This document shows positions 25,727 to 52,462 of a stretch of DNA of 64,000 nucleotides, piece after piece. The position numbers and the translations under genes were made by a program. The stretch is from assembly GCF_053078305.1 (NCBI RefSeq), contig NZ_CP166879.1, one strand, 5' to 3'. The stretch's first letter is position 1. Each line of letters opens with the position of its first letter. The notes below the pieces were generated by a model. It made no database searches. It was not told where the DNA came from and worked only from the letters and a program-made list of their open reading frames with translations.

Positions 25727-26434
<708 letters not shown>

Positions 26435-26517
26435 TGCTTTCAGCCCGCGTTGTCGCGGGCTTCCCATCTATAATCCTCCCTGATTTTTCTCTGATATGGT
26501 GCTAAAAAGTAACCAAT

Positions 26518-26540
26518 AAATGGTATTTAAAATGCAAATT
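26518..26540 (+). promoter_or_regulatory. Candidate NsrR operator upstream of yeaR-yoaG
   Basis: AAATGGTATTTAAAATGCAAATT resembles NsrR consensus AAGATGCATTTAAAATACATCTT. Confidence 0.5.
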
Positions 26541-26606
26541 ATCAGGCGTACCCTGAAACGGCTGGAATAAACCGTTTTCAGCGCATTCACCGAAGGAGGG
26601 AAAAGG

Positions 26607-26966
26607 ATGCTGCAAATCCCACAGAATTATATTCATACGCGCTCAACGCCTTTCTGGAATAAACAAACTGCGCCTGCCGGAATATTCGAACGTCATCTTG
26701 ATAAAGGAACGCGCCCGGGGGTTTACCCACGCCTTTCCGTTATGCATGGGGCGGTCAAATATCTCGGCTACCCTGATGAACACAGTGCAGAGCCTGATCA
26801 GGTGATCCTTATCGAAGCGGGGCAGTTTGCGGTGTTCCCTCCAGAAAAGTGGCACAACATTGAAGCCATGACTGACGATACTTATTTCAACATTGACTTC
26901 TTCGTTGCTCCTGAAGTCCTGATGGAAGGCGCGCAACAACGGAAAGTCATTCATAACGGGAAATGA
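26607..26966 (+). CDS. yeaR: DUF1971 protein YeaR
   Basis: 119-aa ORF with GGAGGG Shine-Dalgarno. Confidence 0.85.
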   Translation: MLQIPQNYIHTRSTPFWNKQTAPAGIFERHLDKGTRPGVYPRLSVMHGAVKYLGYPDEHSAEPDQVILIEAGQFAVFPPEKWHNIEAMTDDTYFNIDFFVAPEVLMEGAQQRKVIHNGK

Positions 26967-26969
26967 ATC

Positions 26970-27152
26970 ATGGGCAAAGCAACGTATACCGTGACCGTCA
27001 CCAATAACAGCAATGGCGTTTCTGTCGATTATGAAACAGAGACGCCGATGACTTTGCTGGTGCCAGAAGTGGCGGCTGAAGTGATAAAAGATCTGGTGAA
27101 TACCGTGCGTTCTTATGACACGGAAAACGAACATGATGTTTGTGGTTGGTAA
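26970..27152 (+). CDS. yoaG: DUF1869 small protein YoaG
   Basis: 60-aa ORF 3 nt after yeaR stop (operon). Confidence 0.8.
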   Translation: MGKATYTVTVTNNSNGVSVDYETETPMTLLVPEVAAEVIKDLVNTVRSYDTENEHDVCGW

Positions 27153-27299
27153 TTATCACTGATCGTTGATGGCGCAATTTCTGCGCCATCGCAAAAAAAT
27201 CCTCCGTGATGCTCGTCACAAATCTTGCCCTCCCGATGTTGTGCTATGCTTTTTATCAGCGACTAACCCGCTAATGCAAAACAGATAAGTGAGGAAACA

Positions 27300-27548
27300 A
27301 TGGGCATTCTGTCATGGATTATTTTTGGGCTTATTGCCGGTATTCTGGCGAAGTGGATCATGCCAGGTAAAGATGGTGGTGGATTCTTTATGACTATCCT
27401 GCTGGGGATAGTCGGTGCCGTAGTCGGCGGATGGATCAGCACGCTGTTTGGCTTTGGTAAAGTCGATGGCTTCAATTTTGGCAGCTTCGTGGTTGCCGTT
27501 ATTGGTGCGATTGTCGTGCTATTTATCTACAGGAAGATTAAAAGTTAA
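27300..27548 (+). CDS. yeaQ: GlsB/YeaQ/YmgE-family small membrane protein
   Basis: 82-aa ORF, glycine-rich TM segments, GAGGAA Shine-Dalgarno. Confidence 0.85.
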   Translation: MGILSWIIFGLIAGILAKWIMPGKDGGGFFMTILLGIVGAVVGGWISTLFGFGKVDGFNFGSFVVAVIGAIVVLFIYRKIKS

Positions 27549-51703: not shown

Positions 51704-52462
51704 GTGGCGGCAAAAGACAGGATTCAGGCAATTAAGCAAATGGTTGCCAACGATAAAAAGGTGACAGTCTCAAATTTGAGTGGGATTTTTCAGGTAACCG
51801 AAGAAACCATTCGCCGCGATCTTGAGAAGCTGGAAGATGAAGGCTTTTTGACCAGAACCTATGGTGGTGCTGTTTTAAATACAGCGATGTTGACGGAGAA
51901 TATCCATTTTTATAAGCGCGCTTCATCGTTTTATGAAGAGAAGCAGCTTATTGCACGCAAGGCACTACCCTTTATCGACAATAAAACCACCATGGCAGCC
52001 GATTCCAGTAGTACCGTAATGGAATTGCTCAAATTGTTACAGGACCGTAGTGACCTGACGTTGCTAACCAACTCGGCGGAAGCGATTCATGTTCTGGCTC
52101 AGTCAGAAATTAAAGTCGTTTCAACGGGTGGGGAACTAAACAAAAATACACTTTCACTGCAAGGAAGAATTACTAAAGAGATCATCAGCCGCTATCATGT
52201 CGATATCATGGTAATGAGTTGTAAAGGTCTTGATATTAACAGCGGCGCGCTGGACTCTAATGAAGCGGAAGCTGAAATCAAAAAGACAATGATCCGTCAG
52301 GCGACAGAAGTTGCGTTATTGGTTGATCACTCTAAGTTTGATCGCAAAGCTTTTGTCCAGTTAGCTGACTTTAGTCATATTAATTACATAATAACTGATA
52401 AATCACCGGGTGCAGAGTGGATAGCATTTTGCAAAGACAATAATATCCAGCTGGTGTGGTAA
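51704..52462 (+). CDS. ydjF: DeoR-family transcriptional regulator YdjF
   Basis: 252-aa ORF with GTG start, N-terminal HTH. Confidence 0.9.
   Translation: MAAKDRIQAIKQMVANDKKVTVSNLSGIFQVTEETIRRDLEKLEDEGFLTRTYGGAVLNTAMLTENIHFYKRASSFYEEKQLIARKALPFIDNKTTMAADSSSTVMELLKLLQDRSDLTLLTNSAEAIHVLAQSEIKVVSTGGELNKNTLSLQGRITKEIISRYHVDIMVMSCKGLDINSGALDSNEAEAEIKKTMIRQATEVALLVDHSKFDRKAFVQLADFSHINYIITDKSPGAEWIAFCKDNNIQLVW

Follow-up and report, generated by a model that had tools for sequence, protein, structure and literature searches.

The inverted repeat at 26553-26581, upstream of the Escherichia coli yeaR-yoaG operon, lies across the transcription start site; it folds no better than expected by chance, is unsupported by natural variation and is not a feature of the mRNA. 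This is a correction to a first-pass annotation of the same DNA, made from the sequence alone, in which the repeat was described as a hairpin in the leader, and it is the main outcome of our analysis. Overall, we consider it very likely that the yeaR-yoaG regulatory region consists of a weak sigma-70 promoter that is activated by NarL and repressed by NsrR, a repeat that straddles the start site, and a separate hairpin at +1. Control by NsrR and nitrate is known at textbook level and adds nothing new; the alternative hairpin at +1, for which our findings are suggestive, is the only mildly new item, and a modest effect is expected of it. For inverted repeats near promoters in general, the position relative to the transcription start is needed before the label "leader hairpin" is applied.

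The yeaR-yoaG locus and its core promoter

The window analysed here, a stretch of DNA of 64,000 nucleotides (64 kb), is E. coli chromosome. The 801 bases around the site match 5,419 of 5,426 complete E. coli genomes, in which they are annotated as leuE, yeaR and yoaG, and the RefSeq annotation of the matching genomes gives the neighbourhood gene order as dmlA-dmlR-leuE-yeaR-yoaG-yeaQ. A narrower segment of 121 bases (26500-26620) is present in 5,416 genomes, with an identity of at least 99% in 3,927 of them. Open reading frames together with this RefSeq annotation place leuE at 25796-26434, yeaR at 26607-26966 on the + strand (DUF1971/TehB-like; Pfam PF09313 found on its orthologues) and yoaG at 26970-27152 on the + strand (DUF1869; Pfam PF08956 found on its orthologues), and thus bear out the original assignment of the locus to yeaR-yoaG. 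The region under study (26518-26606) sits within the 172-bp intergenic region between leuE and yeaR. Reading from the sequence, a Shine-Dalgarno element, AAGGAGG (26593-26599, + strand), is found 7 nt 5' of the yeaR ATG at 26607; its GAGG is kept in the orthologue alignment, and the element lies outside both of the hairpins considered below (26553-26581 and 26561-26582).

Directly past the leuE stop codon is a further, strong hairpin, GCCCGCG-TTGT-CGCGGGC (26443-26460), in a region (26436-26475) that folds at -16.4 kcal/mol. Citrobacter and Salmonella have a similar hairpin at the corresponding position. The E. coli hairpin is followed on its 3' side by a poor U-tract (TTCCCATCT), and the terminator scan made no call here, so that read-through from leuE into the yeaR promoter is possible.

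The yeaR promoter is well studied and serves in biosensors of gut inflammation; its complex with NarL and RNA polymerase has been resolved by cryo-EM at 3.2 Å, and nitrate control of yeaR via NarL is documented (PMC10853779). The published NarL 7-2-7 site, TAACCAATAAATGGTA, is centred at -43.5, just 5' of the -35 element (PMC10853779; also PMC7419079), a position for which PMC10853779 relies on its citations of Lin 2007 and Squire 2009. In the window the identical activator site, TAACCAA-TA-AATGGTA, is found at 26510-26525 (+ strand). Deriving the transcription start from its centre gives G26561 on the + strand as +1 (MG1655 position 1879994, minus strand). Upstream of this derived +1 are a -10 hexamer, TACCCT (26549-26554, + strand; -12 to -7), and, after a 17-bp spacer, a -35 hexamer, TTTAAA (26526-26531, + strand), which was inferred from the position of the NarL site, matches the consensus at 4 of 6 bases and is contained in the NsrR operator. 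Another paper puts the NarL site at -38 to -47, which leaves a doubt of about 1 nt on +1, with G26560 as the alternative start. A sigma-70 scan of the yeaR promoter region found no strong promoter, as would fit a weak, activator-dependent one. In the genome-wide start-site supplement of PMC3415461, b1797 is listed in the orthologue table only, without a start site.

Among promoters that are controlled by NarL only, yeaR has a single 7-2-7 site beside the -35 element and is independent of FNR, whereas ogt requires two tandem 7-2-7 sites (PMC10853779, PMC7419079).

The NsrR operator is promoter DNA

The palindrome that the first-pass annotation had matched to the NsrR operator pattern is the 23-mer AAATGGTATTTAAAATGCAAATT (26518-26540, centre 26529), an 11-1-11 inverted repeat (AAATGGTATTT-A-AAATGCAAATT) in which 8 of the 11 half-site positions are self-complementary. 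We scored the window with a symmetric NsrR weight matrix built from the 19 other sites in Table 4 of PMC5320621, leaving the yeaR site out. At 22.4 bits, the 23-mer ranked first among 63,978 positions and lay within the 13-31 bits spanned by the training sites, and none of 200 simulated 64-kb windows reached this score. With the identical 23-mer given as the predicted yeaR NsrR site in the same Table 4 (PMC5320621), the match to the operator pattern stands. A search of the whole window with the strict consensus AAGATGCATTTNAAATGCATCTT, allowing up to 3 mismatches, returned no matches, because the yeaR site has 6 differences from the perfect ytfE palindrome. The second-best matrix match in the window, AAAATACACTTTCACTGCAAGGA at 52143-52165, scored 11.2 bits. 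This is less than any training site reached (13.3 bits or more) and less than the top score of a simulated 64-kb window, which averaged 13.9 bits, and the match is probably not an NsrR site.

In the account of PMC5320621, NsrR regulation of yeaR is called known, with a citation of Lin et al. 2007. NsrR ChIP-seq in strain CFT073 missed the yeaR site, a result that the authors regard as a false negative, and yeaR and yoaG were up about 160-fold in nitrate-grown CFT073 (PMC5320621). As NarL regulation is published as well (PMC10853779), the NsrR operator and the control of yeaR-yoaG by nitrate and nitric oxide, which had been read correctly from the sequence, are already established.

What had been misplaced is the position of the palindrome, which was put in the leader. 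By arithmetic from the NarL centre of -43.5, the operator is centred at -32 and spans -43 to -21, and it is therefore promoter DNA and not leader. It shares 8 bp with the right-heptamer side of the NarL site and covers the entire -35 hexamer (26526-26531), all upstream of +1. This agrees with Lin et al. 2007, who reportedly place the NsrR operator at -32.

The yeaR site has the same 11-1-11 architecture as the operators of the E. coli NsrR regulon (ytfE, hmp, hcp and ygbA), and, like them, it overlaps the core promoter of genes that are induced by nitrate- or NO-related stress. It differs from them in being a weaker palindrome than that of ytfE, in having gone undetected by ChIP-seq in CFT073 (PMC5320621), and in being interleaved with an activator site, such that NsrR would compete with NarL and RNA polymerase.

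We propose that transcription starts at G26561 from a weak sigma-70 promoter (-35 TTTAAA, 17-bp spacer, -10 TACCCT), which phospho-NarL at the 7-2-7 site (-43.5) switches on, as shown in the literature, and which NsrR at the -32 operator, lying over the right NarL heptamer and the -35 element, would keep off. Since the operator overlaps both of these elements, bound NsrR is expected from the geometry to keep NarL and RNA polymerase out. Repression is relieved by nitric oxide, which inactivates NsrR.

To follow these sites across species we sampled 27 loci with YeaR relatives from one-genome-per-species contigs and another 10 via protein homologues. The NarL site is kept in Escherichia, most Citrobacter and Salmonella. 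In these genera the spacer is divergent except for a conserved core, which is made up of the block TAACCAATAAATGGTATTTnAAATGC and the -10 element TA[AC][CT]CT; this -10 element is kept in 26 of the 27 aligned orthologous regions. NsrR sites of 14.7-29.2 bits were found 72-90 nt 5' of the ATG in 20 of the 24 ortholog loci scored. The site of S. diarizonae is weaker (11.4 bits), and the matrix scan of these 24 loci found none in K. pneumoniae, Leminorella and the host of P0023; for K. pneumoniae (locus L033) the called start of the gene is apparently too far downstream, and what lies 5' of it does not compare with the other loci. Sites of 22-29 bits occur without a NarL site in Silvania, Yokenella, Pantoea, Lelliottia and two other hosts, and in three Citrobacter genomes the NarL site is gone and the NsrR site kept. 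Given distant orthologues with NsrR sites and without NarL sites, predicted NsrR control is an older and more general feature of the operon than NarL control.

Several lineages depart from the E. coli arrangement. In C. sedlakii and C. amalonaticus-like genomes (L007, L011 and L024), TGCCCCTTTTGGTGTA replaces the NarL 7-2-7 site about 90 nt 5' of yeaR and the NsrR site is retained at 20 bits; these lineages may have lost nitrate control, with NO control remaining. In the Salmonella loci L016, L020 and L029 the right NsrR half is degenerate (AAATGCTGTTT or AAATACTGTTT; 11-15 bits) and the NarL site is intact. Within E. coli, A26525G (strains AR436 and 98207) falls in the right NarL heptamer as well as in the left NsrR half-site, and T26533A (strain 107) alters the right NsrR half-site; yeaR expression, basal or induced, may not be the same in strains with such operator variants.

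No convincing -35/-10 pair was found in Pantoea, Lelliottia, Silvania and two other hosts, and these loci, having no assigned promoter, were left out of the analysis of the +1 hairpin described below. A common motif, [CA]GTGGTGAAATA, occurs 45-55 nt 5' of the ATG in the distant orthologue loci L031 (1148-1170), L035, L030, L036 and L027, at a position homologous to the E. coli start site; its E. coli counterpart is CGGCTGGAATAAA. The motif resembles an extended -10 element in several genomes (TGnTGAAAT or TGnTGTAAT), and in Pantoea it is flanked by the inverted repeat GTTTAGT...ACTAAAC. Lelliottia (L032) and Leminorella (L034, 1201-2100) carry two tandem TehB-like (PF09313) genes 5' of the DUF1869 gene. 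The Leminorella trio has no NsrR site upstream and lies directly 3' of norV/norW-like genes, which suggests that it is co-transcribed with an NO reductase operon.

An inverted repeat across the start site

The repeat CTGAAACGG-N10-CCGTTTTCAG occupies 26553-26581 on the + strand, with arms at 26553-26561 and 26572-26581, or -8 to +21. The first-pass annotation had reported stem-forming arms about 10 bp downstream of the palindrome. A stem is indeed present, with 9 pairs and one bulged U, a folding energy of -7.4 kcal/mol and a z-score of -2.85 when taken alone; it starts 12 bp past the palindrome. Its assignment to the 5' region of the mRNA fails, as the 5' arm (26553-26561) runs from -8 to +1 and is made up of the last two bases of the -10 element, the discriminator and the start base. 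This arm is thus upstream of the transcript, so that transcripts from this promoter cannot form the stem. The fold is also no better than chance: 10.9% of the 29-nt windows of this sequence fold at least as well, and an 81-nt context does no better than shuffled sequences (z +0.21).

Natural variation points the same way. The bases CCG at 26572-26574 are TGG in E. coli E69, CGG in E. whittamii and ACG in E. coli SCPM, which breaks inner pairs of the stem in all three and weakens the fold from -7.5 to -1.9, -4.6 and -4.7 kcal/mol, respectively, without compensation. Over the Escherichia variants as a whole, the weakened folds have energies of -1.9 to -5.7 kcal/mol, compared to -7.5.

In its placement between promoter and start codon, the yeaR stem-loop is like a leader terminator or attenuator. 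This reading was rejected: the yeaR stem is AU-rich, unlike those of intrinsic terminators and attenuators, and a terminator scan at 26553-26590 found no terminator. The sequence 3' of the stem is CAGCGCATTC; a U-tract is absent 3' of both stems (CAGCGCAUUC), so that there is no intrinsic terminator or attenuator. Rfam covariance models, run over 26300-27400 on both strands, gave no match up to E = 10.

Both arms would be transcribed only in RNAs that start 5' of 26553, which requires read-through from leuE or an unmapped upstream promoter. That such transcripts carry CTGAAACGG/CCGTTTTCAG as an attenuator, a stabiliser or a translational element is, in our estimation, very unlikely. The repeat itself is real and its z-score is low when it is taken alone, the stem would dominate the 30-nt ensemble if its 5' arm were transcribed (P = 0.91), and some read-through past the uncalled leuE hairpin is plausible. 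However, the published start puts the 5' arm at -8 to +1, and even in a hypothetical longer read-through RNA it is the +1 hairpin that wins, at about 0.5 versus 0.2-0.3 for the 26553-26581 stem. The frequency of equally good folds, the inner pairs broken in Escherichia without compensation, the absence of a U-tract and the lack of an Rfam match argue further against a leader stem. A DNA-level role, in which the same repeat (-8 to +21) is a palindrome for a further dimeric regulator bound across the start, we regard as extremely unlikely. The antisense strand folds at least as well as the sense strand (-10.3 versus -7.4 kcal/mol), inverted repeats cross the predicted start also in the C. freundii group and in Pantoea, and residual activation in vivo suggests that other factors act at the promoter (PMC10853779). 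Yet the arm sequences differ wholly between genera, which does not indicate one conserved site for a protein, the 3 inner base pairs vary even within Escherichia, and repeats of such quality are common. In the yeaR promoter literature cited here, no regulator is reported at 26553-26581.

A hairpin at the 5' end of the mRNA

The 3' arm of this repeat is also used by a different hairpin, GCUGGAA-UAAACCGU-UUUCAGC (26561-26582, + strand; +1 to +22), which begins exactly at the derived +1 and has 7 pairs, one of them G.U, and an energy of -7.0 kcal/mol. Folding of the first 120 nt of the mRNA gives its pairs probabilities of 0.95-0.97, and 3.1% of 22-nt windows fold as well. Our findings indicate that a small 5'-terminal hairpin is probably maintained at this position. 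Among 12 Escherichia sequences, 14 of 46 leader positions vary, and only one of these 14 variable sites falls in the 14 positions of the stem (hypergeometric P = 0.022), while 3 of the 8 loop positions vary. The sole stem change, G26565A in strain E400634, replaces G.U with A-U pairing and brings the energy to -7.5 kcal/mol; across all Escherichia variants the hairpin stays at -7.0 to -7.5 kcal/mol.

Hairpins built from different sequences are found at the same place in other genera, where the start sites are predictions from the conserved -10 element. The C. freundii group has CAGCGA/UCGCUG, a second Citrobacter group GCAGCG/CGCUGC and Salmonella CAGCGAU/AUCG[CU]UG, all starting at +2 or +3. 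In Escherichia, both of these Citrobacter groups and Salmonella, 0-2 unpaired nt separate the hairpin from the predicted +1. The C. amalonaticus-like genomes have GCGGUU/[AG]A[UC]CGC, a weak stem of -3.7 to -6.7 kcal/mol that starts only at +5. When each leader was compared with its own dinucleotide shuffles, the stability of the 5'-terminal hairpin gave p-values of 0.003-0.06 for four groups out of five; the C. amalonaticus-like group fell outside the criterion used, owing to its start at +5.

The fold also favours one strand. In Escherichia the +1 hairpin has -7.0 kcal/mol on the sense strand versus -2.2 on the antisense strand, and the corresponding values are -6.4 versus -0.1 in S. arizonae and -7.0 versus -1.9 in S. 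diarizonae. The sense strand folds much better in three of four C. amalonaticus-like genomes as well, and nowhere does the antisense strand have an advantage of more than 1.3 kcal/mol. This asymmetry points to RNA rather than to a DNA palindrome.

In a start-anchored, N-padded alignment that was registered by hand to the structure, 73% of cells can pair, compared to 24-58% when the partners are slid. Covariation in this same alignment, whose registration leans towards the structure, scores 0.42, compared to at most 0.18 for slid partners. Pairs 5-7 hold in 25 of 25 sequences of the hand-registered set. Changes on both sides of the stem are seen in pairs 3, 4, 6 and 7, all of them on the single branch that separates Escherichia from the rest. 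RNAalifold, run on an unbiased MAFFT alignment, returned no consensus structure; MAFFT had set the stems of different genera out of register.

A hairpin at this position invites comparison with stabilising stem-loops, which act through the 5'-end dependence of RppH and RNase E. The ompA 5'-UTR hairpin is reportedly such a 5'-terminal stabilising stem-loop, as described by Emory, Bouvet and Belasco in 1992. In such stem-loops some 0-4 nt at most precede the stem. Like the ompA hairpin, the yeaR hairpin is at or near the 5' end, is separate from and 5' of the Shine-Dalgarno element, and has no U-tract; it is much shorter and weaker (7 bp, -7 kcal/mol), and the resemblance is one of position only. 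By this analogy, the 7-bp hairpin with which the mRNA begins (+1 to +22) might shield its 5' end against RppH and RNase E, giving the mRNA a longer life; this role as 5' stabiliser is the likeliest function for it, and one that we consider possible, if somewhat doubtful. A fuller version of this proposal is that the stem-loop was selected, was rebuilt in Citrobacter and Salmonella, and would protect the yeaR-yoaG mRNA from 5'-end-dependent decay, with read-through RNA in Escherichia giving two mutually exclusive folds depending on where transcription originates; this we offer tentatively and think rather unlikely to hold as a whole.

It is quite possible, though short of probable, that neither hairpin is functional, that the +1 hairpin is a small structure that arose by chance and was passed on by descent, and that only the protein-binding sites matter. 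The modest energy of the hairpin (-7.0 kcal/mol, matched by 3.1% of windows) would fit such an account, as would the empty RNAalifold result on the MAFFT alignment and the tracing of the compensatory changes to one branch. The hairpin is, moreover, weak or displaced in C. amalonaticus-like genomes and not evident in Pantoea and the host of P0024. Descent alone, however, does not readily explain a stem in Escherichia that is invariant next to a variable loop and downstream leader (P = 0.022), with a lone change that improves pairing, nor the recurrence of differently built stems within 0-2 unpaired nt of the predicted start in four lineages. The asymmetry in favour of the sense strand and the much lower scores of the slid-partner controls likewise speak for a maintained hairpin.

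If the +1 stem-loop does have such a role, it would add a post-transcriptional layer to a promoter that is widely used as a nitrate/NO biosensor. PyeaR constructs that are cut at or near +1, or that have an insulator such as RiboJ placed after it, remove or alter this small conserved 5'-terminal hairpin. Should the hairpin stabilise the mRNA, its loss could change the output and the dynamic range of these constructs.

In E. coli strain 98207 (L044), a tandem duplication of about 47 bp lies in the yeaR leader, at the equivalent of 26582-26606 in the window. In this strain GCGCATTCCCCGAAGGAGG... is present twice and the Shine-Dalgarno region is duplicated.
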